DNA of 57,926 nt from a virus. The notes beneath the pieces are model-generated. The model searched no databases. It had not been told where the DNA came from and saw only the letters and a list, made by a program, of their open reading frames with translations. Below are positions 3,241 through 53,079 of the stretch, piece by piece. The translations under genes and the position numbers were made by a program. Numbering within the stretch: position 1 is the first letter of the stretch; each line of letters opens with the position of its first letter. Location: the IMG/VR virus record IMGVR_UViG_3300029305_004519, positions 77,541 through 135,466 of that record; one strand, given 5' to 3'.

Positions 3241-3243
3241 CGA

Positions 3244-3447: not shown

Positions 3448-3508
3448 TTTCTTTCCTTTCTGCGCATTTCCAAATTTTTCCAGTGCGCTCTTTTTATGTA
3501 GAGGGAGA

Positions 3509-3928
3509 TTACTCTCCCTCGTCCTCGTCAATCATGCGATCCTCACATTCTTCATTGTCGCATTCATCGCAATTGAAGTCGCACTCATCATCGAGTTCAT
3601 CCTCATCATCATCGAGGAAATAGTTGGGAATGTCGGGGAACTCGCCCGCTTTGTTGGCACGGACATTGTGAACCTTGACCTTATTCGTAAGGTCAGATTT
3701 GGCAAGAGGTTCAAACACATCGATCTTGCGACGGAGAACCGAACCATCGTTGCGGAATACCGATACCTGATAGCCACCCCTGACTTTCAACACATAGGGA
3801 GAAGAAAGTCGGTCTTTTTCGCAGGTATTGAAGCGGATATTTGCATACGCATCTTGCACTGCGGTTTTGAGGTCTGCATAGTCAACTCCCGTACAGATAA
3901 GGCGGTAAACATAGTTTTTCTTTTTCAT
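3509..3928 (-). CDS. Hypothetical protein (139 aa) with an extremely acidic C-terminal tail (DDDEDELDDECDFNCDECDNEECEDRMIDEDEGE)
   Basis: ORF track entry. GAGAGGA Shine-Dalgarno. Candidate DNA-mimic or anti-restriction protein by composition. Confidence 0.6.
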   Translation of the reverse strand: MKKKNYVYRLICTGVDYADLKTAVQDAYANIRFNTCEKDRLSSPYVLKVRGGYQVSVFRNDGSVLRRKIDVFEPLAKSDLTNKVKVHNVRANKAGEFPDIPNYFLDDDEDELDDECDFNCDECDNEECEDRMIDEDEGE

Positions 3929-3964
3929 AATAAAAATCCTCTCTTTTCTTTTGATTACATATAT

Positions 3965-3993
3965 ATTATATCATAAGATATGTACTTTGTCAA
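3965..3993 (-). promoter_or_regulatory. Consensus promoter with a duplicated -35 (TTGACTATTGACA)
   Basis: Plus tgtcaa at 3988-3993 and attata at 3965-3970 with a 17-bp spacer. Confidence 0.7.
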
Positions 3994-4553
3994 TAGTCAA
4001 GTTGCACAAACTTTTGATTATTTATTTGTGCAACTTGACGATGGCGCTTGGCTATTTTGTTAATATAATGCTCTGCATAGTACTTTGCGGCTTGCGCAAT
4101 GTCATTGCAGTTTGCTGATAGTTTTGCTTTACGTATAAGTTCCTCAAACTCATGTTCGGCGCGCCATTCTTGTGCGATAATGTTCTGCTCTTGGGTTACC
4201 TGCTCCCATTTGAGAATCTCAATATCAAATCCATGGTCATTGAAATTATCGACTTTATCTTCAAGGCGGAAGCAATATTGTACCTCTTTGGACATAAGAT
4301 ATGCCCATCCAACAGTGATAGGAATCCATATTAAATCCAACCAAGTGACCGATATTGAGAGGGAAAGTATAAGTCCAACCCCATAAATTACTATCATTGC
4401 TACGAAAAGCCAGCAACTCAAATAATATTTGATACTCATGTTTAATTCTTTTTCTGTCATGGGGCGCTCATGAGTGATTTCTTTATAGTCAAACTCATTG
4501 GTTTTGGTATTGAATGTTGGGTAGTACATTGTGCGCTTTACTGTTTTAGCCAT
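3990..4553 (-). CDS. Membrane protein (187 aa; two central TM helices, C-terminal coiled-coil-like region)
   Basis: ORF track entry. GAGAGGAATA Shine-Dalgarno. Confidence 0.6.
   Translation of the reverse strand: MAKTVKRTMYYPTFNTKTNEFDYKEITHERPMTEKELNMSIKYYLSCWLFVAMIVIYGVGLILSLSISVTWLDLIWIPITVGWAYLMSKEVQYCFRLEDKVDNFNDHGFDIEILKWEQVTQEQNIIAQEWRAEHEFEELIRKAKLSANCNDIAQAAKYYAEHYINKIAKRHRQVAQINNQKFVQLDY
3996..4039. repeat. Perfect 15-bp inverted repeat GTCAAGTTGCACAAA / TTTGTGCAACTTGAC separated by 14 bp
   Basis: Its arms contain the conserved promoter-upstream element TTTGTGCAA in both orientations. It lies inside the 3' end of the 3990-4553 CDS. Confidence 0.5.
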
Positions 4554-4584
4554 TGTATATTCCTCTCTTTTCTTTGGTATCTAT

Positions 4585-4613
4585 ATTATATCATATTTAT
4601 CGGGAAAAGTCAA
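4585..4613 (-). promoter_or_regulatory. Sigma-70-type promoter (TTGACT-17-TATAAT)
   Basis: Plus agtcaa at 4608-4613 and attata at 4585-4590. It shares an extended ~45-bp homology with the 8578-8606 promoter (gtcaatgaataaaYtgtaa). Confidence 0.7.
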
Positions 4614-4668
4614 TGAATAAACTGTAAACTAAATGTAAACAAAAAATGAATGAGAGGTAGGGCTTGCG

Positions 4669-4702
4669 CATAAATCGGCTCGACGCGCCCCACGTCGAGC
4701 CG
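4669..4702 (-). terminator. Rho-independent terminator
   Basis: A 10-bp GC stem CGGCTCGACG-loop-CGTCGAGCCG is followed by AUUUAUG on the minus strand. Confidence 0.6.
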
Positions 4703-4726
4703 CTGAAAAATTGAAGGGCGAGTTTT

Positions 4727-5216
4727 CACTCACCCTTGATAGGTCTGCCGAGAATATCGTGATAATCGTAGTAGCGATACATCGACCACACTTTTTCATC
4801 TTTGACTTTGGAACCATCATACACTACAAGAGTGCCAAGGAAGATGCCACCCAGCCGCTCAATCTCTTCTTTGACAACTGCCACGGTTTTACCGCTGAAA
4901 TAGCTATCATCAATGAAAAGAAATTCGCGCCCTTGATGCGATTTTGGAATGGTTCAAGATTGATTTTAGATGGGTCATGGCGAAAACCACCCGGAACGAG
5001 CAGGTCAATTTCAATACCAAGGTTATGCATAGACAACCCAATCTCACCGCTTGCAATGGTTAGCGCATTATATGCAAGTATATGCGATTTTGCAATGAGG
5101 TCTTGCAGAATTTCATAATCAAACTTGACCGCTTTATCAAGTTCCGAAAAGAAGATTTGACCACCGATGAATTTTTCTAAAAGTTCATTTACAGTTTCAA
5201 AAATTTTATTTTTCAT
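4727..5216 (-). pseudogene. Phosphoribosyltransferase-domain gene disrupted by a -1 frameshift (or a sequencing error) near 4925-4935
   Basis: Frame A (ORF 4824..5216) encodes the N-terminal part. The -1 frame continues with a PRPP-binding motif FLFIDDSYFSGKTVAVVKEEIERLGG...PIKGE and stops at about 4727. The join lies within aatttcttttcattg. Confidence 0.5.
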
Positions 5217-5220
5217 TTCG

Positions 5221-5559
5221 TTATACCCCCAAACTGATTGCTATTGCTTTATCAACTTCCCACATTTGTTTACTATTTGCGATGCCGACAAAGGTTTTTA
5301 GTCTGCGCTTGTCAAGGGTTCGCATTTGCTCACATTCGACCATGCTCTCCTTGCATAAACCGCAAGAGGTATCGAGTAATACCTGTGTTGGCAGACGGAA
5401 TTTATGCGTGCGACTGGTGATGGCCGCCGCAATGACGATAGGCGCGCGTCTGTTGCCTATATCATTAGATACAATCAACACTGGGCGCAAACCGCCTTGC
5501 TCACTGCCGACTACTGGTGAAAGGTCTGCGTAATAAATTTGTCCTCTTTTGATTTCCAT
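5221..5559 (-). CDS. mazF: MazF/PemK/EndoA-family toxin endoribonuclease (112 aa)
   Basis: RGQIYYADLSPVVGSEQGGLRPVLIVSNDIGNRRAPIVIAAAITS...ECEQMRTLDKRRL closely parallels Bacillus EndoA/NdoA and E. coli MazF motifs. AAGGGGG Shine-Dalgarno. Confidence 0.85.
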   Translation of the reverse strand: MEIKRGQIYYADLSPVVGSEQGGLRPVLIVSNDIGNRRAPIVIAAAITSRTHKFRLPTQVLLDTSCGLCKESMVECEQMRTLDKRRLKTFVGIANSKQMWEVDKAIAISLGV

Positions 5560-5572
5560 ATGTACCCCCTTG

Positions 5573-5594
5573 GGTAGAGCCTTACGGCTCTACC
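5573..5594 (-). other. Perfect 9-bp intercistronic hairpin (GGTAGAGCC-ttac-GGCTCTACC) with the upstream gene's stop codon in its loop
   Basis: It lies between the 69-aa gene and the mazF ribosome-binding site. No U-run follows, so it is probably not a terminator. Confidence 0.5.
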
Positions 5595-5791
5595 TCTATA
5601 ACCTCAATGCTTTGTTTTACTACGAACTCCCCGCAAATTTCGCCCGTAAAATTGTTGACGATAATAACATTGGTTTCTTTGTTGATTGCCATGCCATTAG
5701 CAAAATACTTTGCATGGTTAAGGTCATCAAAATCCGCAATGTGCTTGCATTCGCAATACACTCCATAGTCGAGAATGTCAAATCTAATCAT
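5582..5791 (-). CDS. Hypothetical 69-aa protein upstream of mazF (candidate non-canonical antitoxin)
   Basis: ORF track entry. AAAGGAAAGG Shine-Dalgarno. It has no recognisable MazE/AbrB or RHH signature. Confidence 0.5.
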   Translation of the reverse strand: MIRFDILDYGVYCECKHIADFDDLNHAKYFANGMAINKETNVIIVNNFTGEICGEFVVKQSIEVIEVEP

Positions 5792-5827
5792 AAGTTTATA
5801 CCTTTCCTTTCTTTTGTTTACATATAT

Positions 5828-5856
5828 ATTATATCATATTGATTGCCGTTTGTCAA
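5828..5856 (-). promoter_or_regulatory. Consensus promoter (TTGACA-17-TATAAT) with the upstream TTGACTATTGACA / TTTGTGCAA element
   Basis: Plus tgtcaa at 5851-5856 and attata at 5828-5833. Confidence 0.7.
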
Positions 5857-5888
5857 TAGTCAATTTGCACAAAGTTTTTGGGTGGGAC

Positions 5889-6200
5889 TTATGCACAATA
5901 CACAAGCCCCATATCGCGCCAGCGGAGAACAGAGATTTGATTACAAGCGCGCCCAACTTCAAGGGCTTCATGCTTTGTTGCTACTCTATGCGATAAGTCG
6001 ATATAGTAGATGCCAGCGCTGAACCAAATACCGCAGTTACCGCCATATGCCTTGACCGCGTTAATGGCTTCGCGGGGGTCGGTGGTTTCAATGCCCTCTG
6101 TTGCGACTTGATACCCAGACTTGTAAATGATGCGCTTACCGCCTTTAAGGGTCATTCCGTCATTATCTTTCAGATTGCGAATGGAGCGAATGTTGATCAT
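5889..6200 (-). CDS. Hypothetical protein (103 aa)
   Basis: ORF track entry. AAAGGAAAGG Shine-Dalgarno. Confidence 0.55.
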   Translation of the reverse strand: MINIRSIRNLKDNDGMTLKGGKRIIYKSGYQVATEGIETTDPREAINAVKAYGGNCGIWFSAGIYYIDLSHRVATKHEALEVGRACNQISVLRWRDMGLVYCA

Positions 6201-6233
6201 AATATGTATTTTCCTTTCCTTTATTGTATCTAT

Positions 6234-6262
6234 ATTATATCATAAAAGCGGGAAAATGTCAA
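6234..6262 (-). promoter_or_regulatory. Consensus promoter
   Basis: Plus tgtcaa at 6257-6262 and attata at 6234-6239 with a 17-bp spacer. Confidence 0.7.
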
Positions 6263-6323
6263 TAGTCAAATGTAACAAAGTTTTGGAGAAAAAAAGATGG
6301 TGATTTGTACAGATTGCACAAAA

Positions 6324-6380
6324 CGGCTCGCGGCGGAGGATCGCGAGCCGGGCAAAGAAAAAAGGTGCCTGTTGGCACCT
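6324..6380 (-). terminator. Tandem rho-independent terminators after the 6380-6565 gene
   Basis: Hairpin CGGCTCGCG-loop-CGCGAGCCG is followed by UUUUGUG. Hairpin GGTGCC-aaca-GGCACC is followed by UUUUUUCUUUG on the minus strand. Confidence 0.65.
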
Positions 6381-6565
6381 TAATCAATGATGAGGATATT
6401 CTCTTGCGGGAGCCCGAGGGAGATTGCATACCAAAGGGCATCGTCTACACTCTCGCAATCTTTTAGTTTAATTATTTTGAATTCATTTCTGACACGACAT
6501 TCATAGTTAGTTTTGTCAGTAATGCACCATCCATAGAAAAAATCTTTCCATAAAATATATTGCAT
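6380..6565 (-). CDS. Hypothetical protein (61 aa)
   Basis: ORF track entry. AGGGGGTAG Shine-Dalgarno. Confidence 0.5.
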   Translation of the reverse strand: MQYILWKDFFYGWCITDKTNYECRVRNEFKIIKLKDCESVDDALWYAISLGLPQENILIID

Positions 6566-6579
6566 TTTTCTACCCCCTA

Positions 6580-6816
6580 TCAGTAAGTGTCATAGCCGAG
6601 GCAATCGCCTTCGGCATCGGTAATAAGAGCAACGAAACAAGCGTATTCAAAGTTTTCATCAGCGGTTGCTTGGCAACGAGTGATGAAATCTTCCATTTCT
6701 TCGCCTTCTTCCTTTTTCCATTCTACAAGGAAAATTTCACCGCTTTCCCTGTCATAGAATTTGGCGTCAAGCCATTCGCCAACTTTTGTCTGTTCCCAAA
6801 TCTGTTCGTTTGTCAT
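6580..6816 (-). CDS. Highly acidic small protein (78 aa; 22 D/E residues against 4 K/R)
   Basis: ORF track entry. AGAGAGG Shine-Dalgarno. Candidate DNA mimic by composition only. Confidence 0.55.
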   Translation of the reverse strand: MTNEQIWEQTKVGEWLDAKFYDRESGEIFLVEWKKEEGEEMEDFITRCQATADENFEYACFVALITDAEGDCLGYDTY

Positions 6817-6860
6817 TTGTGTTTACCTCTCTTTTATGTATTTGTCCTTTTGACACTCTT

Positions 6861-6889
6861 ATTATATCATAAATAAATGTATTTGTCAA
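6861..6889 (-). promoter_or_regulatory. Consensus promoter
   Basis: Plus tgtcaa at 6884-6889 and attata at 6861-6866. Confidence 0.7.
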
Positions 6890-6922
6890 GTATTTTTGCA
6901 AAGTTTTTTTGAAATATCGAAC

Positions 6923-7043
6923 AAGTTTACAAAATGTTCATAATTTAACAGCAGGTCTTAAACTACTGCTTTTACGGGTAACAAAATAGAAATGAATGGT
7001 TCATAATTTTGCGTATAAAAGTTTACAAACTGTTCACAAAATG
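6923..7043. repeat. Three iteron/operator-like repeats (GTTTACAAAATGTTCATAATTT, ATGGTTCATAATTTTG, GTTTACAAACTGTTCACAAAATG) upstream of the 6861-6889 promoter
   Basis: Direct reading gives a shared core TTTACAAnnTGTTCAyAA. Related copies lie at 8655-8715 upstream of another promoter. Confidence 0.5.
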
Positions 7044-7045
7044 CA

Positions 7046-7081
7046 AAAAGCGCGCCGCCCCGGGTGTCAGCGGCGCGGCGA
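7046..7081 (-). terminator. GC-rich terminator hairpin after the 7100-7384 gene
   Basis: GCGCGCCGC-loop-GCGGCGCGG is followed by CUUUUUGCAUUUU on the minus strand. Confidence 0.5.
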
Positions 7082-7099
7082 TGGAAAGAGGACTGCTTG

Positions 7100-7384
7100 T
7101 TAGCAGTCCCCTGTGTAGCAACCCATGTAAGGGTCAAAGCCAGTTTCATCGACGTCAGGCTCATAGTCCTCATCTTCCTCGTCCCAATCCTCATTGTAGT
7201 AGAGGCTTTCGGTGCCGTGGTGGTAGATGATTTGCGCCATAGGGGTAGCCTCGTCTTTGGTGAGGTGGTCATCTGCGACAAGGTCAACCAACCGCGCGAT
7301 TGCAATGGTATGGGGGTCTTCAAGCCCGAACTCCGAGCAGGCGAGGTTGTGGCAGTTGATGAGCGAAAGTTTGGTGTAATCCAT
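7100..7384 (-). CDS. Hypothetical protein (94 aa) with an acidic C-terminus; paralog of the 8116-8316 protein
   Basis: ORF track entry. AAAGGAGAA Shine-Dalgarno. Shares the motif ACxxxGLEDxHTIAIA with the 8116-8316 product. Confidence 0.55.
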   Translation of the reverse strand: MDYTKLSLINCHNLACSEFGLEDPHTIAIARLVDLVADDHLTKDEATPMAQIIYHHGTESLYYNEDWDEEDEDYEPDVDETGFDPYMGCYTGDC

Positions 7385-7387
7385 GGT

Positions 7388-7645
7388 AGTTCTCCTTTAT
7401 GTAGATTGAATTGGCTCTGCTCCGTCCATCCGAGGCGGTCGGCTCCTATGAGCGGACTGTGCCATCCTCGGCATCTTTGCCCTACTTGGTTTATATAGCG
7501 ATGGGCGTCTAACACGGTCTTTGCTGACCTCTGACTGCGCTCTGCGGAGAGCGGGCTCTTTACACCGCTTGCAAGGGTACTCGTTTCTTCAAGTTGTGGC
7601 TAAACTCGGTTGGTAGCGCTCCCAACGGCTTTCCCCTTGACACCT
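7388..7645 (-). ncRNA. Long (~250 nt) GC-rich untranslated leader or candidate structured RNA between the promoter and the 7100-7384 gene
   Basis: No ribosome-binding-site-preceded ORF. Several internal complementary segments such as CCGAGG/CCTCGG. The track ORFs here (6958..7515, 7064..7498) lack Shine-Dalgarno sites and look like compositional artefacts. Confidence 0.25.
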
Positions 7646-7647
7646 AT

Positions 7648-7676
7648 ATTATATCACACTTTCGGGCAAAAGTCAA
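7648..7676 (-). promoter_or_regulatory. Sigma-70-type promoter (TTGACT-17-TATAAT)
   Basis: Plus agtcaa at 7671-7676 and attata at 7648-7653. Confidence 0.7.
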
Positions 7677-7736
7677 TAGGTAATATTGCACAAACTTTTG
7701 GCGCCAAATTTGTGCATCTTGCACAAGAAGGCAAAA

Positions 7737-7800
7737 TCGTCGCGCCACGACCGCTGGCGCGACGGCGAAGGGAAAGAGGGCTTTTCAGCCCTCTCTTTGT
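7737..7800 (-). terminator. Tandem terminator hairpins after the 7785-8081 gene
   Basis: AGAGGGC-loop-GCCCTCT at about 7776-7797 and GTCGCGCCA-loop-TGGCGCGAC at about 7741-7767 are followed by GAUUUUGCC. Confidence 0.55.
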
Positions 7801-8081
7801 TTCAATGCGCGATAAGCATCGCGCTCTTCTTTGGTATCAAACCATGTCTTTTCGCCGTACATCCAAATCATATCAACGGAGTCGACACAGTGCACAAGAG
7901 CGAAGCCTTTATGCGCTTGTTGATGTGTGGCTCTAATGGCATATGGGCTACCATTCAAGCGTGCGGTTGAAACGCTCTCTCTGGTAGTTGCAATTTGATA
8001 TTCTTCAATAAAAGCAGGCGTTGCAAGAAAGGGACGTTTTACGCCAAGGACTTTGTAAAGCTCTCTAATAGAATGTTTCAT
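7785..8081 (-). CDS. Hypothetical protein (98 aa)
   Basis: ORF track entry. AGGAGGA Shine-Dalgarno. Confidence 0.55.
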   Translation of the reverse strand: MKHSIRELYKVLGVKRPFLATPAFIEEYQIATTRESVSTARLNGSPYAIRATHQQAHKGFALVHCVDSVDMIWMYGEKTWFDTKEERDAYRALKQREG

Positions 8082-8115
8082 GATATATCCTCCTGTTCGA
8101 TGGGGTAGAGGACTA

Positions 8116-8316
8116 TTAGTCCTCTACCATATGGTATGCGCCGATTGCTTGCATATAGATCGCACGACAGACCATTGCCGCATCCCAACATTTGGCGCCG
8201 CCGGCTTCATGCATTTCTACAATTCCGGCTATTGCAATGGTGTGCTTATCCTCAAGCCCAAGGTCAGTGCAGGCTTTATCCAGCCACTGCCGAGGAGTCA
8301 TGAAATAGTTGCTCAT
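8116..8316 (-). CDS. Hypothetical protein (66 aa); paralog of the 7100-7384 protein
   Basis: ORF track entry. GGAGGTG Shine-Dalgarno. Carries the GLEDKHTIAIA motif. Confidence 0.55.
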   Translation of the reverse strand: MSNYFMTPRQWLDKACTDLGLEDKHTIAIAGIVEMHEAGGAKCWDAAMVCRAIYMQAIGAYHMVED

Positions 8317-8328
8317 ATGCCCACCTCC

Positions 8329-8520
8329 TTATGCGCCGAGGGCTCTAAAACGGAGCCCTTCATATGTGCCGTGATAAAAGCGCCACTTGCCTGCGCCGTA
8401 GCCATAACGAACATTCCAACGCGTATTGCGTGTAACGTGACGGCGGAGCGCATTGCCCGTCATAGAGCCAAGGACTTCGCCTGTCTCAAGATTATAAGCC
8501 CAGTGTTTGCAGTTAGTCAT
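8329..8520 (-). CDS. Basic small protein (63 aa)
   Basis: ORF track entry. GGAGGT Shine-Dalgarno. Confidence 0.5.
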   Translation of the reverse strand: MTNCKHWAYNLETGEVLGSMTGNALRRHVTRNTRWNVRYGYGAGKWRFYHGTYEGLRFRALGA

Positions 8521-8577
8521 AATAGACCTCCAAGTATGTATTCAGAGGGGGAGCGTCCTCCGCCCTTCTGTGTCTAT

Positions 8578-8606
8578 ATTATATCACATAAAGGCGCAAA
8601 AGTCAA
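8578..8606 (-). promoter_or_regulatory. Sigma-70-type promoter (TTGACT-17-TATAAT)
   Basis: Plus agtcaa at 8601-8606 and attata at 8578-8583. Confidence 0.7.
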
Positions 8607-8654
8607 TGAATAAATTGTAACTTATATATGAATATTTTATGAACTTTGCGGGAC

Positions 8655-8715
8655 GGGAAGTGTTCACATTTGGTTCAAACAACTGAAACAAAAAATTTAC
8701 AATTTGTTAACAAAT
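8655..8715. repeat. Operator-like repeats related to the 6923-7043 set (GTGTTCACATTTGGTTCAAACAA, TTTACAATTTGTTAACAAATC)
   Basis: Same TTTACAA..TGTT.A.AA core, found upstream of a different early promoter. Confidence 0.4.
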
Positions 8716-8721
8716 CTTAAA

Positions 8722-8800
8722 AGCGGCGCGTCGCGGGGGATGACGCGCCGGCCGGCACTTCAAGAAGGCGCAACCCTATGACCGGGCGCGCCTTCTTCGC
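8722..8800 (-). terminator. GC-rich terminator hairpin(s) after the 8815-8964 gene
   Basis: GGCGCGTC-loop-GACGCGCC is followed by UUUUAAGAUUU. A second hairpin GAAGGCGC-loop-GCGCCTTC follows. Confidence 0.5.
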
Positions 8801-8814
8801 TGATATGGGATGCC

Positions 8815-8964
8815 TTATACTATACACACATAGGTTCCGGCTCTTGTCCCTTCAGCCTGATACACTTCGGTAATATCAATATTACCGCTATTGCTGTCAA
8901 ATACCCGGATGGGCATATTCTCGTCATATTGGTTAAGCAATTCTTTCAACTCTTTTATAGTCAT
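8815..8964 (-). CDS. Hypothetical 49-aa protein
   Basis: Part of ORF 8815..9006, using the internal Met MTIKEL with a GGAGGGAG Shine-Dalgarno. Confidence 0.4.
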   Translation of the reverse strand: MTIKELKELLNQYDENMPIRVFDSNSGNIDITEVYQAEGTRAGTYVCIV

Positions 8965-8981
8965 GATATAACTCCCTCCTA

Positions 8982-9146
8982 TTAATCGCGGTCTTTCTTC
9001 TTCCAAATCCCTATGAGGATTGAAATCTCATTGCAAATAGTTACAAATACCGCAACCAATGCAATCATAAGTGGGGTAACATTAAACATGCCACTGCTAT
9101 ACATTAAAAGCAGAATAGTCAACCCTATCAAATACATTCTTTCCAT
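8982..9146 (-). CDS. Hypothetical 54-aa membrane peptide (two hydrophobic segments)
   Basis: AAGAGG Shine-Dalgarno. Its start overlaps the upstream stop (TAATG). Below the track cutoff. Confidence 0.35.
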   Translation of the reverse strand: MERMYLIGLTILLLMYSSGMFNVTPLMIALVAVFVTICNEISILIGIWKKKDRD

Positions 9147-9418
9147 TATGCCCAACCTCTTTCTTTCTTAATTTGCTCATATCGAGCTTTATTCTCTGCC
9201 TCAATGCGCGCCTTATCATAGACGCGCGCCTTGATTTGAGTATATCCATATTTACGCATGTCGCGCACTGTCATATGACGTTTTGCTAACATCTTCGTGA
9301 CAGCCTTTTGTTGATATGCGACTTTATTCGCCATATAGTCTACCCATGACGCAACTTCTATCAATTCGGAAAGCGGTCTATAACCGCTTTCCGATATAAT
9401 GGTGACTTGAATCTGCAT
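9146..9418 (-). CDS. Hypothetical protein (90 aa)
   Basis: ORF track 9146..9421 trimmed to its ATG. AGAGGTAAT Shine-Dalgarno. TGATG overlap with the Lar gene. Confidence 0.55.
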   Translation of the reverse strand: MQIQVTIISESGYRPLSELIEVASWVDYMANKVAYQQKAVTKMLAKRHMTVRDMRKYGYTQIKARVYDKARIEAENKARYEQIKKERGWA

Positions 9419-9630
9419 CACATTACCTCTATACTTTCATTGTTCCATGCTTCAATGGCGAGGTCTACGGTATAGCCGGTTTTGCCTGCCGCTTCACAAG
9501 TGGGGCATTGCATAAAATAACCCTCATCCCAACCGGCAAACTCCCGGTTGATTCTATGCAATTGAGTTTTACAGTAGGGGCAGGGGCGGATATAATCCGC
9601 CTGCCCTTTTTCGATTGCTTTAATTTTCAT
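9418..9630 (-). CDS. lar: Lar-family restriction alleviation protein (70 aa zinc ribbon)
   Basis: CPYCKT...CPTCEAAG...AIEAWN matches the Lar family pattern CPxC..C..C with AIEAWN. Confidence 0.7.
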   Translation of the reverse strand: MKIKAIEKGQADYIRPCPYCKTQLHRINREFAGWDEGYFMQCPTCEAAGKTGYTVDLAIEAWNNESIEVM

Positions 9631-9824
9631 TTATTTAATTCTCCTTTCGCTAATGCCAAAGTATAGGCGTGATAATCATCGCAAAATTTTTCAATCGAAA
9701 GAATTTCGCAATCCTGTTCGATAATATGTGCCAATGCGGTATGCATGCCGCCGCCCGATACAGTATAACTATCACATGGAGTGGTAATTCGATAACCTGC
9801 TTTTTCTTCATATCTTGTAAACAT
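9627..9824 (-). CDS. Hypothetical protein (65 aa)
   Basis: ORF track entry. GAAAGGAAGG Shine-Dalgarno. Confidence 0.5.
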   Translation of the reverse strand: MFTRYEEKAGYRITTPCDSYTVSGGGMHTALAHIIEQDCEILSIEKFCDDYHAYTLALAKGELNK

Positions 9825-9846
9825 ATAAATACCTTCCTTTCTATGT

Positions 9847-9867
9847 GGGGTAGGTTTAACCTACCCC
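9847..9867 (-). other. Perfect 10-bp hairpin (GGGGTAGGTT-t-AACCTACCCC) with the stop codon of the 9856-10107 gene in its loop, just upstream of the next ribosome-binding site
   Basis: Same arrangement as the hairpin at 5573-5594. Confidence 0.4.
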
Positions 9868-10107
9868 GTTTATTTTCATGGCGTCAAGCATCTCGCCCGC
9901 GCCCTGTTCGACTTCTTCCGCCAATGCGGTGAAAAAATCATCTTCCGATTCTTCCACCACGGGAGCGGTAACAAGCTCCACATGAGAGCTAACGAAAAAC
10001 AATTCGTTTACCTCTTGAATTGTTTCACCATTTACTAAAATGGTTTTGTGGGGGTCGCATTTTTGCAATTCTTGAATAAGTTGAGAAACAGACATTGACA
10101 TGATTTT
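9856..10107 (-). CDS. Hypothetical acidic protein (83 aa)
   Basis: ORF track 9856..10119 trimmed to Met MSMSVSQ with an AAAGGAA Shine-Dalgarno. Confidence 0.5.
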   Translation of the reverse strand, partial: KIMSMSVSQLIQELQKCDPHKTILVNGETIQEVNELFFVSSHVELVTAPVVEESEDDFFTALAEEVEQGAGEMLDAMKINGVG

Positions 10108-10138
10108 GATTCCTTTCATATGTAAAAAATTTTTTTGA

Positions 10139-10240
10139 TTAATTGAACAGACAACCCAACAGATGAACGACTAAACCGAACAGACAAACACCAATAAATG
10201 CGCCAATAGATAAGAGTACTAAAAGCAATTCAAGTGGCAT
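10139..10240 (-). CDS. Hypothetical 33-aa hydrophobic peptide (MPLELLLVLLSIGAFIGVCLFGLVVHLLGCLFN)
   Basis: GGAAGTG Shine-Dalgarno. It is the first gene after the leftward divergent promoter. Confidence 0.3.
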   Translation of the reverse strand: MPLELLLVLLSIGAFIGVCLFGLVVHLLGCLFN

Positions 10241-10293
10241 TTTTTTCACTTCCTTTCAATTTGATTTTTTGCCGTGTTTACCACCGCAAGACT

Positions 10294-10322
10294 ATTTTAC
10301 CACAAAGCCAAGCATTTGTCAA
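10294..10322 (-). promoter_or_regulatory. Leftward promoter of the divergent control region (TTGACA-17-TAAAAT with an extended TG)
   Basis: Plus tgtcaa at 10317-10322 and atttta at 10294-10299. The TTGCACAAA element is inverted-repeated at about 10336 and about 10373. Confidence 0.6.
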
Positions 10323-10547
10323 CACTTTTTTCATTGTCATTTTGCACAAATTTTTTGGGGGTTTGAGAATTTTTTTTGTGCAAACTACACACAATTATAA
10401 GAGGTATTTTTGGGATTTTGAAATTTCTATTTTCTTCCAAAGCCTTTCCTACGGCAATTCACTCCTAGAAAATTCATTTCATTTCAAAAGACGAACAGGA
10501 TTTTTATAGCTCTCTCTCCAAACCAATAATCCAACGAAAAATTATCA

Positions 10548-10557
10548 CACGCATATG
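10548..10557. promoter_or_regulatory. Perfect palindrome CGCATATGCG about 25 bp upstream of the rightward promoter's -35; candidate operator
   Basis: Read directly from the sequence. Confidence 0.3.
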
Positions 10558-10579
10558 CGATCCCTAACCTCGACCGTTC

Positions 10580-10608
10580 TTGACAACTTTAAAATTTTTT
10601 GGTAAAAT
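10580..10608 (+). promoter_or_regulatory. Rightward promoter (TTGACA-17-TAAAAT, extended -10 TGgTAAAAT) driving the recoded gene block
   Basis: TTGACA at 10580-10585 and TAAAAT at 10603-10608. AAAGGAG Shine-Dalgarno and ATG at 10646 follow. Confidence 0.65.
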
Positions 10609-10645: not shown

Positions 10646-11761
10646 ATGTTAGAAGAAGCAGAATTAATAGAAGACAAAATGCAAGAAGCATAGATTGAGC
10701 CTCCTTCTCCAATTAAATTAGACTATACTCTTAAGACATGCGACGAGCGCGCGGCCTTGGTATAGCGCATCATTGAGTCAACGCCGGGCGCCCAACTATC
10801 AAATCGATATCTTGAAATTCTCGGTGATTACATCATGGGCGCCATTACCAAAGAAGAGCGCAAAGAAAAATTATATCTAACAGACAACCGCCTTGTAACT
10901 ATTAATAAGCGCGAAACCTCATATGAAGGCATGGTTGAAAAATTTGAAAATGGTGAAGATGGTATCTACAATCTCATCACCAATGACAAAAATATTCTTT
11001 TTTAGCCTAAAGTTAGCATAACAGATCAAGATATTGAAGAAGTACCAGGTCTAAAAGAGTTGCGCGCGGCCATGAAAGAAATTGAGGCAGAGGGAAAAGC
11101 GGCAACGGGCAGGCGCAAATACCTATTGAAAAAACAATTAATTGAAATGCGCCGCGATCAATACGTGCTTAAAAACGCCTATAAGCCACCGATGGCGCTT
11201 ACCCCTTCAGCGCGCGCCATTAATAAAATAGATTTATCTGAGCGGAGATACATTGATGAGAATGGAGACCCACAAAGCACCGGTTTAGTTTCATTCTTTA
11301 ATCCCAAGCATATCTCTGCGCTTTTGTGCAACTATAATGCGTTAAAGATTGAAACCAAAGGGCGCTATTGGGACGATTTCTTTTATTTAATGGAGGCGTT
11401 CGATGAATTAATAAAATAGGCGCTGGCGCCTTACCCTATGTATCAAGAGCTAGTCCGTATGAAGATAGACGGGGCGCCCAACAGTGAAATTCAATAGGCG
11501 CTCGCCGAACACTACAATACCTAGCACTCGGCGCAATATATCTCATCCTTATGGCGAAATAAAATTCCAAAAATCATTGCGGAATAGGCGCAAAACGATT
11601 ATTTAATATGGCATTACCAAAATGAAGAAAAGGGACAATGGAAAAAATGTTCCTGCTGTCATCAATATAAACTGGCAAATGCGCGCTTCTTTTCCCGTAA
11701 TAAGACTTCAAAAGATGGTTGGTATAGTATATGTAAAGCCTGTAGAAATAAAAAAATTTAA
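10646..11761 (+). CDS. Hypothetical protein (371 codons including about 6 in-frame TAG) with a C-terminal Cys-rich zinc ribbon (CSCCH...CKAC)
   Basis: A single frame runs from ATG 10646 to TAA 11759-11761, interrupted only by TAG. ORF-track pieces such as 11060..11419 are in the same frame. Confidence 0.6.
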
Positions 11762-14788: not shown

Positions 14789-14853
14789 CCAAAAATTTAG
14801 GACATTTTTAAATAAATGATATTATTCAATTTTTATATAACAATAGTAAAGGA

Positions 14854-15219
14854 GTGAGAGATATAAAAGCAAGCCGAGGCGAAATTAAAATTTGTGATAT
14901 TTTAACTGAAGCTGGCGTCTCTTTTACTGAAGAATATTCATTTCCAGATCTTGTGGGACATACAAAAACGCCATTGCGTTTTGATTTCGCAATTTTAGAT
15001 GATAATGGAGAAGTTGACTTTTTAGTTGAGTTTAATGGAATACAACATTATCAACCTAAATCTAAATTTGGTGGCGTCGCAGGGTTGCGACAATAGCAGT
15101 ACTATGATATGTTAAAAAGAGAATATTGTAAGAAGCATAATATTCCCTTGGTTATTATTCCTTATTATGACGAAGGAAGAATTAACTACGACTATATTTT
15201 TACAGCTGCGGGATATTGA
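14854..15219 (+). CDS. DUF559/Vsr-like PD-(D/E)xK endonuclease-fold protein (121 codons; GTG start, uncertain), possibly a free-standing homing endonuclease
   Basis: RFDFAILDDNGEVDFLVEFNGIQHY matches the DUF559 core. One in-frame TAG. Ends at TGA 15217-15219. Located between terL and the portal gene. Confidence 0.5.
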
Positions 15220-23455: not shown

Positions 23456-24025
23456 ATGCAAAGAAATATTGTGACTAACGAAATCCCAGTTTCATCTTTT
23501 TTATCTTGCGAAAAAGATACGGAAATTATTTTGCGTAAATTATTTATATCAAGCCAACCATATAGCGATATTTTAAAACGATTATTGGTTATTCAAGCAA
23601 AAGATTGTTTGGATAAAAAATACGATGTGTCTGAGTACACTTTAAAGCGTCTTGTAGATGAGTAGTATATTATTATGGGGCCTAAATTAATTATCCCTGA
23701 GCACGAACAAGTAAAAGCTTATTTAGGAATTCATTTTGATAACTTTTCTCCAACTTCTAATCCAGAGTTTCGAGATTGTATGATTTATTTTACTATTATG
23801 ACGCATGACGATTTTGATAATTTGGGTAATTATAGAAGACGCCCTTTTAAAATTATTGGCTATATAGATGGTTTATTAAATAAAACAAGGTTAACTGGAA
23901 TTGGTTAGCTTGAATTTATGGGCTGTTCAAGTAAATCTGCTGGCCCAGGGTGGACTGTGCACGCTTTAACTTACAGGGCAGTGCATGGCACTGGAGAAGA
24001 CGAAGAGAAAATGTCTAATGAATGA
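23456..24025 (+). CDS. Hypothetical protein (189 codons, 2 TAG)
   Basis: AAAAGGAG Shine-Dalgarno. Track ORFs 23456..23665 and 23675..23908 are in frame. Confidence 0.45.
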
Positions 24026-24773
24026 TTTATTACTTCTCTCCGGGGCAAATATTCCTTTTATTGAGGGCACAGTAACGATTCATTAGCCTACAATATATGA
24101 AATCTCTTTAATTGGTGAAGAAAAATTATTCACAGGATGTGAATTACTGAAATTTTCAAAAGACATATTAAATTCTGAGGACAAAAATAGATTAGCCAAT
24201 TATAATGATTTTAATATATTAATGTCAATTATGAATGATAATAGTGGATCAATGATATTTAATATATCTTGTGCCAAATAGGTGTTAGATTTAATCTTCC
24301 CTTTGTATACTGTAGTTATTGCACCAACAGCTATTTTACTCTTGGATTGCAATGATCAAACTAAATTATGTGGCTAGATTAATGAAAAAAATTTTGCTGC
24401 ATTTAAGAATGTTATTATTTAGGTGTTTTGTTTAAAGAAAGCTTCTGCAACGCCTGAATATAATGTTCAATCAGAATTAGCGAAACAAATTGCTGATAAG
24501 TTTAAGAAAAGACAACAATAGCTTGCCGCATAGTCTTCAAATTCTAAGCGAGTCGCAATTTTTAGTAGATATATTTCGATATTAACAGTAGGCGAAAATA
24601 AAGATATGAATTCTTTTATGTAGTACACTGTTTATCAATTATTTGACGAGTTCTAGCGATATTAGTTAAAAGTAGGTCATGATACCTATATAAAAGCTAA
24701 ACTTGCTGGAGCAACAGACTTAGAAGAACCGGCAGATTGGATGAAAGATATCCATGATGCTAGTTCTAATTAA
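24018..24773 (+). CDS. Hypothetical protein (251 codons, about 13 TAG)
   Basis: ATGAATGA overlap with the upstream stop. Frame 0 is open to TAA 24771-24773 apart from TAG. Confidence 0.4.
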
Positions 24774-47800: not shown

Positions 47801-50329
47801 ATGAAATTTGATAATAAACATTTTGTTTCGGGAGAAAATTTGCAGCATTATAATGAGCAAATTCAAGACCGATTAAATGATAAGGTAGATATTAAAGACT
47901 ATCCCTCAATAAAACAAGGGGAAGGAGAAAATAGTATTATTGCAAATGATATTGCAATTAATCAAGCAATAGGAGATAACTCTATAGCGTTTGGTACGAA
48001 TACATTGGCAGGCGCCAAGGGCTATTACTATTAGGCAATTGATACTACAAATAAAAAAATTTATTTAAGTCATGAGTAGATTCTATATCCTGTAATCACC
48101 ACAGAAGATTTGACTGATACTACTTTTGATACCCCGGCCTATGAGGTCGGACGCAAGTTTTGCATTATAAATAATAGCAAGTCTAACATGATTGCTAGCA
48201 TTGTTAGCATAGAAAATAATGTTATAACTTATGATGTGCCTCTTTCAATCTTTGACAATGGAATTGTTGAGATTCAAGCAGATTATATCGAACCAGACGA
48301 TTATGCTTTATATGTTCCAGAACAAGCTAGTATAGGTGAGGTTACTGTTAAATTAAATGCAGTTGCTCTTGGAAATGGATCTATTGCGGCAGGTAATGAA
48401 GCTTATGCATCTGGTAGAGCTTCGTTAGCATATGGTGATTATGCATATGTTGAAGGCTATGGTTCACGAGCTGCATATGCGGCACATGCTGAAGGAGTTC
48501 GTACAATTGCAGAATCTCAATGTCACTCTGAAGGGTATGAGACTTAGGCGCTAAAAGCATTCTCTCATGCAGAAGGTTATGGTAGCGTTGCAGGCATGAA
48601 TCGCGCCCATGCAGAAGGTAGTTTAACATATGCGCTTGGAATTGCTGCTCACGCAGAGGGCTAGACTACTGTTGCAGAAGGGCAAGGCTCCCACGCAGAA
48701 GGAACTGAAACTTATGCTAAAGGCAAACATGCGCACGCCGAAGGGTATTTAAGTCAGGCCCAAGCAGAAAGCTCACATGCTGAAGGATATTTAGCCATAG
48801 CTAGTGGTATTTAGGCCCATGCGGAAGGTAACTAGAGTGTTGCTAGCGGCTAGGGCGCCCATGCAGAAAACTATGGAAATACTGCAAGTGGTAAATATTC
48901 ACATGCTGAGGGAGTAAGAACTATTGCCTCAGGTCGAGCTGCACATGCAGAAGGAGAGAACTCTTAGGCTGTAGGAGAGAGATCTCATGCTGAGGGATAT
49001 CAAGCTACCGCCTATGGAAAAGGATCTCATGCTGAAGGACAATCTTTGAATAAAGCATTGACTGTTTTAGAAGGAGTAGAGTTAGACGCTTCTAAAATTA
49101 TTGAAAAATGGAATGAGAGTAAATTTAATTTAGCTTTAGGAGAGTATGCTCATACTGAAGGACTTAATACTTTAGCTTTAAACAAGGCTGCTCATGCAGA
49201 AGGATCTGATACCAATGCTGAAGGAGCTTACTCCCACGCTGAGGGAGTAGGATTTGCTTCTGAATCCTACACAGTAGGCTGGGGGGAGGAGGCTTATGAT
49301 GTTTCGATAGAATTTCAAGGAGCGGCTCGAGGTTTAGCCAGCCATGTCGAAGGAAACGCCACAGTGGCCTCTGGAGATTATTCTCATGCCGAGGGGGTCA
49401 GTTTCTTATTTGCAGAGGAAGGACTCCGTGGAGTACAACAAACAGAAGCTCGGGGGTATGGTGCCCATGCAGAGGGACAAGGAACTTTAGCCATTGGAGA
49501 TTATTCTCATGTTGAAGGAGGCCTTGGCGATGGAGACGATGAAGAATTTGATGGTTCTAAAAGAAGAACTAAGGCGGAAGGAATAAAGTCTCATGCTGAA
49601 GGTTCTGGTACCTGGGCGCTTGCAGATGCGGCTCATAGTGAAGGACATCATACAGCTGCGTCTGGAAAAGGTTCTCATGCTGAAGGTAGTGATACTTCTG
49701 CTAGCGGAGATTATTCTCATGCTGAAGGCTATAACACATAGGCTCTTGGTGAGGGCGCACACGCCGAGGGAAAAAGTTCTATTGCGAAGAATAATTATTC
49801 TCACGCAGAAGGCAACATGACAAGAGCAGAAGCTTCTTGTGGGCATGCAGAAGGTAATAACTGTAGAGTCGGCGCTTTTGATAGAGGTTCTGTAAGTGCA
49901 GGTGGTAATACTAGCGCAGGTGCGTATGGACATGCGGAAGGTAATGCGACTATTGCATCAGGAGTTGCTGCTCATGCTGAGGGTAAATTAACTTATGCAA
50001 GCGGAGAGGCTTCTCATGCGGAAGGTCTATCAACCATAGCCGAGGGAAAAGCATCTCATGCTGGAGGTGAATACTCAGAAGCTCGAAAGATTCATGCTTT
50101 TGCTCATGGTTTCCATGTTACAGCTGACGCCCCTCGGCAAGTAGTTGTAGGGTCATGGAATGTTCCAGATGAAGAAGCTTTGATGATAGTAGGAAATGGA
50201 CAAGATTTTGGCAGTAAAAACAATGCTTTTACGATATATCCTAATAGCATTAAAATTGGAAACGTTGAACTGACAGCTGAAAAGCTTCAAAAGTTAATTG
50301 ATTTTATTGACTCTGTTGAGTTGAATTGA
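47801..50329 (+). CDS. Repetitive beta-roll-like fibre/adhesin (842 codons, about 10 TAG) built from about 30 copies of a roughly 14-aa unit containing SHAEG
   Basis: Frame 2 is continuous through track ORFs 47801, 48110, 49046 and 49817. The repeat xAxGxxSHAEGxxT is reminiscent of YadA-head or Hep_Hag-type repeats. Confidence 0.6.
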
Positions 50330-50349
50330 AAGAAAGGAGTGGATAAAAT

Positions 50350-51285
50350 ATGAGTATAAATAATATTAATTTTAAAACTAATATTTTTACACAAGATAAC
50401 AAAGAAGTAAGTGGCATCAAACAAGTTGATGGATATGATGTTTTTGAAATTAATGGAGCTAGTCAATGGCCTATTGCAGTTAAAGATCATACCGATGAAC
50501 CAGCATTAATGAATAGACCTTTATTGGCATTTAGTGGCAAAAATTTGTTTTCCTTTGAAGATATGTTTTATGAATCTTGGGCTCCATAGGAAGATAATCC
50601 AGATTTAACTCAATATGGCTACAGACTCACAGATAATGCTTTATGGTTTATCGTTGTAGAAGATGTCTCTTTTGGTTTAAGTGGGACTATGCCCGCCAAG
50701 GGATTGCGTGGACGCACTATGACTTTCCATTGTGAAATACCGAATGGAGGCTGGATAGTGGAAGATTGGGATGGATCCGCTTATATATCCATTACAGCAG
50801 AGTTAGAAAATGGTAGTTAGTAGGTTATAATGTATGCAAACCTATATACCACTGATTATGAGGGTTTAAGTAGTAGTTTCGAAGAAGTTGTAAATACAAC
50901 TTTTACGATTCCTAATGAGACGTGTTTATTAAGGTTTGAATTCGCGACACAACATCCCGACGCACTACATTATCATTGGTAGGGCGAAATTACAAATGTT
51001 TCCTTAGAATTATCTGAAGAATTTAGCGGTTTTGAGAAACCAATAGTTGCACGATTTTATTATAATGGTATAACTGATGGACATTGGTCTACATGGCGTG
51101 CTGGATAGCCTTATAATTTACTATGGATACCTCTTGGCCTTCCTTGTACTGTTAGCTACATGAATGCAGATAGCGTGTTTAGTGAACCATTAAATACTTA
51201 TTGTAAGCAACCTTTTGCAGATATAAAATCATTGCAGTCTAGAGTTTCAGATATTGAATTTTATCTTTTTTAGCTGTTTAATTGA
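50350..51285 (+). CDS. Tail protein (311 codons, about 6 TAG) whose 3' end carries the CUU-UUU-UAG putative +1 frameshift site
   Basis: AAAGGAG Shine-Dalgarno. Frame 1 runs to TGA 51283-51285. In the zero frame the product ends ...YLF(TAG)LFN. Confidence 0.5.
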
Positions 51286-52138
51286 AGGCACTAAAATTCA
51301 CATGGCAGACGGGACAGAGAAAAATATTGAGGATATCCAACAGGGAGATATGATTCAATCGTGGGATATTGAAAATAATTGCTTATATGCAGTTCCTGCA
51401 TTATGTAGCGTTAAAACAGGATATGCAAGAGAATATAAAGCATATCTATTTGAAAACGGATCTTATCTAACTATTTATGATCCGCATCATATCTATTCTT
51501 GTACGACTCAAGCGCCTAAACGCGCAAGTTCTTTTAAGATTAGTGAAACAACAATTGGTTGGCCTGGACAAGAAGTTATGTATGTAGGTGATATGAAGCA
51601 TAATTTAGCAAGGCCTAAAGCTCATTATACTTTACTGACTGCGAATAACTTATATTTTGCAGACGGGATTCTTTGTGGACATAATGCGGATAGTAAAAAT
51701 ACATTTGCAGAAATGGGAGTCTTTACTCCAACGGCAGAAGAAAAAGCCTTATATGAATTGGATGCTGAACCATATATGATTAGACGTGAAGAAAAGTTTA
51801 ATCCTGAATATTTAAAAGAAGTAGCTACAATTCGTGGCGAGGTTATTCGTATTAAAAAATAGATTGAAACTTTAAAGAAAAGACTTGGAAATACTGATTA
51901 TAAAGCACTTAAATTCTTTGAAGGGCTGTTGCCTCTTGATGAATGGTCTGGAGCAGCAGACGATAGAGCAGCATTGCGTGAAAAAATTAATGAGAGACAA
52001 GATAAGCTAGCATTAATGCAAGAAAAATATGATGCAATTAAAGCTAAGTATCTAACCAATAAAACCCCAGTAGATTGTTTTAAGGAGTGTTACATCCGCG
52101 ATATGGCGTATTTACGCGAACATCAAACGAAGGAGTGA
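51254..52138 (+). CDS. Hint (Hedgehog/intein-like, BIL-type) domain protein, likely made as a +1 frameshift extension of the 50350 product
   Basis: CLIEGTKIHMADGTEKNIEDIQQGDMIQSWD (Hint N-terminal block with catalytic Cys) ... NNLYFADGILCGHN (C-terminal HN block). There is no ATG or Shine-Dalgarno upstream of the Cys; the track start is a TTG. The first ATG, at 51302, lies downstream of the catalytic Cys. Confidence 0.55.
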
Positions 52139-52146
52139 TAAAATTT

Positions 52147-52434
52147 ATGGCATTGCATAAAATTATTTTACAAGATAACGGCACTATTTGTTCATATCAT
52201 AAAGTAACAGATATTCATTGTTCTACTCTTGAGAATAATGAAATATAGTTAGCAATCACTCTATGCTCATATGTAGATAAGGACATTCGTGATAAATCAC
52301 AAGATTTGTCAGTGATGGGAAAAGGATACCACTTCACTCTTCCATCTACAATTTTAGAGAATTAGAGTATTTTTACTGTGGCATATAATCAAATTAAAAC
52401 TTTGCCATAGTTTGCAGAAGCAGAAGATTGCTAA
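52147..52434 (+). CDS. Hypothetical protein (95 codons, 3 TAG)
   Basis: GAAGGAG Shine-Dalgarno. Confidence 0.4.
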
Positions 52435-52444
52435 AAGTAATAAA

Positions 52445-52480
52445 AAGTAGGCTATTTATGATAGCCTACTTTTATTTTTG
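52445..52480 (+). terminator. Rho-independent terminator
   Basis: AAGTAGGCTAT-loop-ATAGCCTACTT followed by TTTATTTTT. Confidence 0.65.
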
Positions 52481-52563
52481 GTCTTTTTAAATTAATCGTA
52501 TTATATGAATTTTTATATATTTACGAGAACATGAGTATTCTTTATCGAAAGGAGGATATAAGT

Positions 52564-53079
52564 ATGCCTGAATTAATTAGTGCGTATGGTATTACAACTA
52601 TTATTATTGTTCTTCTTGTGGCAATTCCTGCATTGTTTAACTTTATTGGCTGGTGTAAGAAAATTTATGCCTAGAGAGAAAAGTTTAAACAAGACAATAT
52701 TAACAAGGGAATGCAAATTGAAGCAAATCATGAAGCAAAAGAGAATCGTTTAATAAGTGGCGAAACTCGCATTGCTACATTGGAAACAGAGGTCGCTGAT
52801 TTAAAGACATTAATTGTGAAACAACAAAAACAAATTGATTTGTTAGTTAAATCAGATGAACTCGATATTAAGTCTTGGATCAAGGCGCAACACGAGAAGT
52901 GGATTCCGCGCAAATGCATTGATAGCCAGACGCTTGACTTGCTAGAATAGAGATATGCGGTATATACAGAAGAGGGCGGCAATAGCTGGGCTAAGAAACT
53001 CGTAGACGAACTCCGCGCGCTTCCAACCATTACTGTTGTACCGATTACAGATATACATGACGAATCTTTGAATTCGTAA
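52564..53079 (+). CDS. Membrane protein with an N-terminal TM helix and a coiled coil (171 codons, 2 TAG); possibly lysis- or tail-associated
   Basis: GAAAGGAGG Shine-Dalgarno. Hydrophobic stretch ITTIIIVLLVAIPALFNFIGW. Confidence 0.4.

Follow-up and report, generated by a model that had tools for sequence, protein, structure and literature searches.

This analysis concerns two reading frames in a 57,926-nt stretch of viral DNA (positions 77,541 to 135,466 of IMG/VR record IMGVR_UViG_3300029305_004519), referred to below as the window. The upstream open reading frame (ORF), ORF A, encodes a fiber-like protein; the downstream one, in the +1 frame relative to ORF A, encodes a Hint domain followed by a helical domain. 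A preliminary description, made from the letters of the window alone, had proposed that the two are joined by a programmed +1 frameshift at the sequence CTT TTT TAG C. In our reading, a one-base break has split a single precursor gene into these two annotated "genes." The firmest result concerns the module, in which a Hint domain is coupled to a conserved helical domain; it occupies the C-terminal end of proteins in about 2,200 clusters.

From about 10.6 kb onward, the plus-strand ORFs of the window tile only when TAG is read as a sense codon. Of the 14,411 codons of the late genes, 203 are in-frame TAG and 70 are CAG. A tRNA search of the window found no tRNA gene and thus no suppressor tRNA within it. 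Gene callers using the standard code break the precursor gene further at its TAG codons, and for that reason the public protein sets hold it as fragments only (P0003, P0006, and P0153).

ORF A (50350 to 51285, plus strand) is preceded by the Shine-Dalgarno (SD) sequence AAAGGAG at 50333 to 50339, 10 nt before its ATG at 50350, and encodes 311 amino acids with TAG read as Gln. Six in-frame TAG codons occur in it, five of them upstream of the junction with the Hint ORF. No significant Pfam or PHROG family was found for ORF A, and its homology was limited to a weak stretch in one relative, P0001; from its context and the architecture of the module family we infer both the label "tail protein" and a role as N-extein, the fiber-like N-terminal part of the precursor. 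Four short contigs of this phage start within ORF A (L062 at 50699, L153 and L155 at 50801, and L063 at 50891), and these recurrent assembly breaks may be due to differences among strains in its N-terminal half.

The junction sequence, ctt ttt tag c, lies at 51265 to 51274 on the plus strand and reads letter for letter as first described: a run of six T at 51266 to 51271, the sixth T being the first base of the recoded TAG. The length of this run is polymorphic, and we call the form found in the window the T6 allele. In T6 the C-terminal end of ORF A is ...SRVSDIEFYLF-Q-LFN, with a TGA stop at 51283 to 51285, four codons past the site. The T-run is the sole spot where +1 slippage (UUU to UUU) or −2 slippage could rejoin the two frames.

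The +1 frame is open from 51227, just after a TAA at 51224 to 51226, down to 52138, and encodes ...F-F-S-CLIEGTKIHMADGTEKNIEDIQQGD.... The TGT at 51275 to 51277 encodes Cys1, the nucleophile for the N–S acyl shift. From there the Hint domain extends for 137 amino acids to 51685 (plus strand), with the block-B His (His71) at 51485 to 51487; its terminal GILCGHN, together with the Ala that follows, occupies 51665 to 51688. The conserved helical C-terminal domain (51686 to 52138, plus strand) contains the invariant pattern L...DYK..K...G...R, with DYK at 51896, a single in-frame TAG at 51860 to 51862, and a TGA stop at 52136 to 52138. All of the conserved residues of the module are kept in the window copy, and no TAA or TGA interrupts its 288 codons.

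The earlier observation that the Hint ORF has neither an ATG nor an SD upstream of the catalytic Cys was borne out. Only two start-like codons occur in the +1 frame ahead of the Hint core. TTG at 51254 to 51256 (plus strand), the sole one upstream of Cys1, would give MNFIFFS-C... and has no SD upstream. The first ATG, at 51302 to 51304 (plus strand), encodes the conserved Met of an I-x-M-x-DGT motif and has no SD at a usable distance, merely a GAAGG 13 nt away; it was chosen by gene callers (P0003 and P0154), yet starting there would remove Cys1 and the first strand, the N-terminal block of the domain. Most of the approximately 34 late genes have an AGGAG-type SD about 5–10 nt before the ATG, as read by eye rather than from a computed score.

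A coiled-coil motif in the frame of ORF A, LQSRVSDIE (51232 to 51258, plus strand), is located five residues before the Cys. The corresponding family motif, [LIVM]xxR[LIVM]xx[LIVM][EQD], was found in 14 of 126 family members, all of the closest ones among them, and in 13 of those 14 it sits three to five residues before the Cys. In the proteome of this phage the motif occurs seven times in 14,133 residues, or about 0.006 times per 20-amino-acid stretch. At the junction it was found in frame 1 alone; the other two frames had stops and no similarity. The presence of the family pre-Cys motif at the right distance in the frame of ORF A argues that ORF A belongs with the module.

A Hint-helical module at protein C-termini

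Relatives were sought in a word-indexed search with the conceptually fused window protein and then with a profile made from the window protein and P0001. P0001 was the sole real relative from the word-indexed search; it is a single 491-amino-acid ORF on a TAG-recoded phage contig (L001), and its alignment with the window protein runs from 22 residues before the Cys through to the very end. Against 1.84 billion cluster representatives, the profile matched 2,202 proteins at E ≤ 1e-3, of which 107 reached E ≤ 1e-30. In the matched proteins the whole 286-position module is C-terminal and follows mutually unrelated N-terminal parts of 39–2546 amino acids; where these parts are recognizable, they match phage tail-fiber families, as in several of the proteins, or contain collagen-like repeats. 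In about 125 of 129 full-length family members an in-frame N-terminal part precedes the module, and all 10 full-module loci checked in IMG/VR were in frame at the DNA level, each with at least 65 upstream codons.

The closest relatives, P0001 and P0004 (contig L069), are both single ORFs in which similarity crosses the junction into the frame of ORF A. In P0004, the nearest diverged relative (58% identical and syntenic), a SHAEG-repeat fiber runs straight into the Cys of the Hint domain, in frame and without a slippery run. None of the other family members examined has a homopolymer at the junction.

Hint matches of the window protein alone were below Pfam thresholds and started exactly at the Cys. 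A profile of 27 family sequences matched solved Hint folds (E = 2.7e-14 and 6e-11), the best PDB sequence match being 8w20_A. The AlphaFold2 (AF2) model of the P0004 junction and module, with a predicted local distance difference test (pLDDT) score of 88.8, combined a helix ahead of the Cys with a beta-rich Hint domain and a C-terminal domain made of helices. A Foldseek search with this model matched bacterial intein-like (BIL), intein, and Hedgehog structures with E = 3e-12 to 1e-7 and target template-modeling (TM) scores of 0.7–0.85; the BIL domains of Tetrahymena (BIL2, 6y75) and C. thermocellum (2lwy) were at the top, followed by mini-inteins and Hedgehog 1at0. The helical domain modeled alone (pLDDT 93.5) matched generic long helical hairpins only, and in BFVD the alignment was confined to the Hint part. 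The architecture may be shared by some BFVD entries from uncultured phages whose names are "Hint domain containing protein" or "Collagen triple helix repeat."

The modeled fold and the catalytic residues place the downstream domain in the Hint superfamily. Cys1 was present in 128 of 128 family members and the block-B His in 119 of 128; the terminal Asn was present in only 12 of 128, and the residue at +1 was Pro in 71 of 128, Ala in 17, and Ser in 7. Because Cys1 and the block-B His are kept and the terminal Asn and the +1 nucleophile are not, the domain is predicted to cut at its own N-terminus, in a BIL-like way, and not to splice. This agrees with the preliminary description, which had called it a BIL-like cleaving domain from the HN-A of the window copy. 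Classification as an intein was rejected on two grounds: the C-terminal His-Asn followed by Cys, Ser, or Thr at +1 is lacking (HN-A in the window; the low count of Asn in the family), and no host protein resumes after the Hint domain, since the conserved helical domain ends the protein and the N-terminal parts are mutually unrelated.

Scans of the window protein and of family members against PHROGs gave no significant match. The GenBank phage collection yielded no near-match DNA, and the protein search there gave only inteins in Proteus phage RecA-like genes. A first alignment-based scan of IMG/VR gave mostly generic inteins, and a peptide-pattern search for close relatives in IMG/VR and the JGI metagenomes found none. 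Our literature search found no paper on the module, nor one on Hint or BIL domains on tail fibers; the Hint and helical domains as a unit at the C-terminal end of phage tail fibers appear to be new. The IMG/VR phages L073 to L077 carry the same module, 37–39% identical and in frame, and share the JGI sample series of the window phage (3300022661, 3300018494, 3300032167, 3300024270, and 3300024272), so that the module seems to be common in its habitat.

Some family proteins seem to start at or near the Hint domain and were considered as further frameshifts; most proved to be gene-calling effects. P0014 starts in frame at a TTG behind a strong SD, P0020 runs off its contig, and P0081 has a gap in its scaffold. 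In P0130, from a TGA-recoded phage, an in-frame TGA reads as Trp in the family W-T-C motif. The contig of P0057 is too short to judge. L072 (about 250 to 300, Logan SRR12177858) has an in-frame TGA two codons before the Cys (SGA-TGA-TC), where Trp would give a W-T-C junction; its frame holds further stop codons of types not recorded, and this phage seems to read TGA as Trp.

True exceptions are few, namely L068, L070, and two members with Gly in place of the otherwise invariant Cys1 (P0042 and P0115), presumably non-cleaving copies. In L068 (2990 to 3060, ENA ERZ913640 scaffold_2606) a 705-amino-acid fiber-like ORF is one base out of frame with the module, so that a +1 shift would be needed; its GCT TGA end lies four codons ahead of the Hint Cys, no slippery run is present, and the sequence looks like the product of an insertion of about 10 nt within an ...NAL-EAGTC junction. 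Its module protein, P0046, has an ATG 10 codons before the Cys, without an SD, and thus a 10-amino-acid leader. L070 (1 to 200, ENA ERZ28633918) encodes a stand-alone module, P0061, with a 14-residue leader and a TTG start without an SD; it overlaps, and lies directly behind, a gene whose terminal part looks like a HEPN-type protein and not like a fiber.

Length of the T-run and origin of the frame break

The T6 junction was found in six further assemblies (four from JGI and two from ENA), each 100% identical to the window over 2–6.5 kb. Its recurrence in seven assemblies from two data sources shows that it is not an assembly error. One contig differed. L153 (JGI sample 3300018494), compared with window positions 50801 to 52843, had 0 mismatches and one gap over 2,042 nt, that gap being a run of five T (T5) in place of six. 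The T5 run puts ORF A and the Hint ORF in frame and encodes ...EFYLFSCLIEG..., so that the junction ...YLFSC... predicted earlier as the product of frameshifting is encoded literally in this allele. The L153 protein, P0152, is the longer member of the 90% cluster that contains the window fragment P0003 and reads MNADSVF...SRVSDIEFYLFSCLIEGTKIHMADG.... Thus T6 was present in seven of eight assemblies and T5 in one, the pair representing the same phage with and without the module attached. A DNA pattern allowing 4–9 bases in the run had no match in IMG/VR or in GTDB genomes, and from the latter result no prophage and no host could be named.

The pre-Cys motif, the in-frame architecture of the relatives, and the T5 allele all point the same way, and from these sequence comparisons we conclude that ORF A and the Hint ORF belong to one polypeptide, as the preliminary description had supposed. 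Because almost all other family members are in frame, we infer that T5 is ancestral and that the change was from T5 to T6. Adding one T to CTT TTT AGC TGT gives CTT TTT TAG C TGT; the TAG is then a by-product of the insertion and no signal in its own right. The frame break looks very recent, since genomes with T5 and T6 are otherwise identical over 2 kb.

The explanation we favor, to which we assign a probability of roughly 0.6, is that T6 is a recent insertion allele, derived from T5, of a precursor gene and not a conserved programmed frameshift. The precursor would consist of the fiber-like ORF A and a C-terminal autoprocessing module (Hint from the Cys at 51275 plus a helical domain of about 150 amino acids). 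Like a B-type BIL or Hedgehog-type domain, and unlike a splicing intein, Hint would release itself, together with the helical domain, from the fiber by an N–S acyl shift at Cys1. An insertion of one base, of the slipped-strand type, into CTT TTT AGC TGT would have made both the frame break and the TAG. Standard decoding of the T6 genome would then yield an ORF A protein ending ...YLFQLFN, nearly the Hint-released ...YLFS, and this similarity would explain why the T6 allele is viable and common. The module would go untranslated in T6 unless a minority of ribosomes slipped by +1 (UUU to UUU, with UAG-C in the A site) or by −2, or unless RNA polymerase dropped a U in the run. Because no stimulator is present, compensation of this kind on the U6 run would be expected to be low-level. 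Compensatory slippage at this site, where the host would read the codon as a stop and the phage reads it as sense, is plausible but unproven.

Several observations weigh against this explanation. T6 is the majority form, which would fit a neutral or hitch-hiking mutation but equally a selected allele decoded by frameshifting. The module is intact in the T6 genomes, as expected of a recent break but also of continued expression. T5 occurs on one assembled 2-kb contig from one sample and could be an assembly error, although a single error placed exactly on the T-run in an otherwise perfect 2 kb is unlikely. Finally, UUU_U with a stop codon and a 3′ C is a recognized +1 context, used by a minority of RF2 genes (PMC5009743). 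In another reading, which we find doubtful, the T6 allele would be a working device and no defect: either UAG-C would serve as the hungry codon of a +1 shift that doses the self-cleaving Hint-helical module onto the fiber, or the T5/T6 run would act as a reversible switch.

The first form corresponds to the programmed +1 shift of the preliminary description; such a selected shift would set a fixed ratio of ORF A to ORF A-Hint, with T6 as the functional, favored state. The prfB-type geometry claimed for the site is real: the tRNA could re-pair perfectly from UUU at 51268 to 51270 to UUU at 51269 to 51271, and the stop-type UAG is then followed by C; a −2 slip would fit the run equally well. The RF2 site has UUU_U as one of its natural variants, and a +1 shift at CCC_UGA extends the tail proteins of Listeria phages (PMC5009743). 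A programmed shift would also account for a Hint ORF without a start codon or SD, for an intact module in a genome type seen in seven of eight assemblies, and for a zero-frame stop only four codons past the site, an arrangement typical of C-terminal extension by frameshifting. What is missing from the prfB parallel is a stimulator. No G-rich, SD-like element was present upstream of the site in cagatattgaattttat, and no downstream RNA structure was detected (z = +0.77 and +0.33), whereas high-level shifting almost always needs stimulators; moreover, UUU_U shifted much less than CUU_U in Escherichia coli tests (PMC5009743).

Conservation, too, argues against a programmed shift. In the relatives, single-ORF fusions were found (P0001, P0004, and the 10 IMG/VR loci), but no conserved slippery site was. 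No out-of-frame arrangement is conserved among the diverged relatives; the T6 copies are all identical, their sole variant is the in-frame T5, P0004 is in frame without a slippery run, and the only other out-of-frame case, L068, has no slippery site. The frame break thus separates genomes that show no other difference in 2 kb, which speaks against a selected site. As a control, the same CTT TTT TAG C occurs in frame at 10997 to 11006 (plus strand) in the gene at 10646 to 11761 (...NDKNILFqPKV...), where the +1 frame stops after five sense codons (SLKLA*) and a shift would abort the protein. The window contains three copies of this 10-mer compared with 0.47 expected, a count of three being reached in 1 of 100 shuffles. 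TAG is also a frequent codon here: it is used 203 times, and a ribosome arriving at 51271 has already used the suppressor five times in ORF A, which weakens the further proposal that fusion efficiency could report suppressor abundance. A literature search on phage frameshifting combined with stop-codon reassignment found nothing specific. Taken together, we judge a programmed shift at this site to be unlikely.

The second form, which we consider quite unlikely, is a reversible T5/T6 contingency locus, in which selection would keep both a Hint-processed precursor and a "pre-cut" fiber. Both alleles do occur in otherwise identical genomes of different samples, and the break falls exactly at the cleavage site, so that the mature N-terminal protein would be almost the same from either allele. 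Yet a run of five or six T is short for high-frequency phase variation, T5 was observed once, and the junctions of other family members are free of homopolymers.

Translation of the module as a separate, trans-acting protein (for example, an assembly factor), from the TTG at 51254 or by reinitiation at the ATG at 51302, is very unlikely. In its favor, the stop of ORF A is only 16 nt before that ATG, short-leader or split versions occur in other phages (L070/P0061 and L068/P0046), and P0042 and P0115 have Gly at the position of Cys1. Against it, neither start codon has an SD in a genome with strong SDs, initiation at the ATG loses Cys1 and the first Hint strand, the seven-residue leader from the TTG leaves nothing useful for Hint to cut, and the T5 allele shows that the Hint ORF was part of ORF A one mutation ago. 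An error of sequencing or assembly in either run length seems most improbable, for although homopolymers are the commonest sites of indel errors and T5 occurs in a single contig, T6 is found in seven assemblies from two data sources and L153 is otherwise perfect over its 2,042 nt despite containing other runs of six A. Data prone to such errors would be expected to contain further indels.

Comparison with known systems

The Hint domain resembles BILs, above all the B-type, and the Hint domains of Hedgehog proteins in its fold and in keeping Cys1 and the block-B His but not the C-terminal Asn and +1 nucleophile. B-type BILs have been described as cleaving at their N-terminus and as occurring where proteins that are not themselves conserved vary most in sequence (PMC7765530). 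The context and residue pattern of the module fit that behavior, and its putative kinship with the B-type is drawn from these and from the fold. As in Hedgehog, the Hint domain is followed by a further conserved C-terminal region; in contrast to both groups, it is always followed by the same helical domain of about 150 amino acids (L..DYK..K..G..R), and it stands at the C-terminal end of tail-fiber-like proteins. In polymorphic toxins, too, a pretoxin-HINT domain lies close to the C-terminal end of a large, variable protein that is secreted or displayed on the surface, and the hit P0002, which carries PF07591, and the PDB match 8w20_A point to this likeness; but there the variable part is the C-terminal toxin payload, whereas here the C-terminal domain is conserved and the N-terminal part varies.

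A parallel in function may be the C-terminal self-cleaving chaperone domains of endosialidase-type tail spikes and fibers, reportedly described by Schwarzer and colleagues in 2007. Like those domains (Peptidase S74), the module is a C-terminal unit on unrelated fibers that would be expected to remove itself after its job. They differ in fold and in chemistry, a Ser-Lys dyad compared with a Hint thioester, so the comparison is limited to how the two work; no Pfam S74 match was found in the window protein or in 27 family members. By this analogy, the module looks like a second, chemically different answer to the task of the endosialidase-type chaperones. More speculatively, Hint thioester chemistry could go beyond cleavage, for example to covalent attachment of the fiber C-terminus to another molecule.

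The junction shares with the RF2 (prfB) site CUU_UGA_C a re-pairable P-site codon, a stop-type A-site codon, and a following C. It differs in that an SD-like stimulator 3 nt upstream, an autoregulatory logic, and conservation are all lacking, and its A-site codon is a reassigned, frequent sense codon. The tail proteins of Listeria phages A118, A500, and PSA are extended by a +1 shift at CCC_UGA, and the occurrence of C-terminal extension domains both in and out of frame has been put down to the chance landing of mobile domains followed by selection (PMC5009743). As in those phages, a structural gene is involved, the shift would lie beside the stop of the first ORF, and the C-terminal domain is variably in frame; there, however, the shifts recur across diverged phages and their products are documented, whereas here the out-of-frame state amounts to a one-base difference in otherwise identical DNA. 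In the G-run of herpesvirus thymidine kinase, low-level slippage restores some full-length product from an indel allele and acts as a "savior" (PMC5009743). The T-run may be analogous: here too a short homopolymer has changed in length and broken the frame, and slippage within it could restore some product.

Neighboring genes and other features of the window

A SHAEG/AHAEG-repeat tail fiber is encoded at 47801 to 50329 (plus strand), just upstream of ORF A, and has the coiled-coil end ...KLQKLIDFIDSVELN / ...AEKLQKLIDFIDSVELN. It ends where its homolog P0004 (L069) continues in frame into the Cys of the Hint domain. ORF A, which has an SD and a pre-Hint coil of its own, seems to be interposed between the SHAEG fiber and the module.

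Positions 1 to 10600 of the window contain short ORFs on both strands, with no gain from reading TAG as sense, which suggests an early region in the standard code beside the TAG-recoded late region. The ORFs at 23456 to 24025 and 23985 to 24773 share a 41-nt overlap; no SD precedes the second (cacgctttaacttacagggcagtgc ATG), and no obvious slippery heptamer was seen in the overlap. The ORF at 14812 to 15219 has no ATG or SD near its start, and its product, ...FDFAILDDNGEVDFLVEFNGIQHY..., resembles a small nuclease, apparently inserted among the structural genes.

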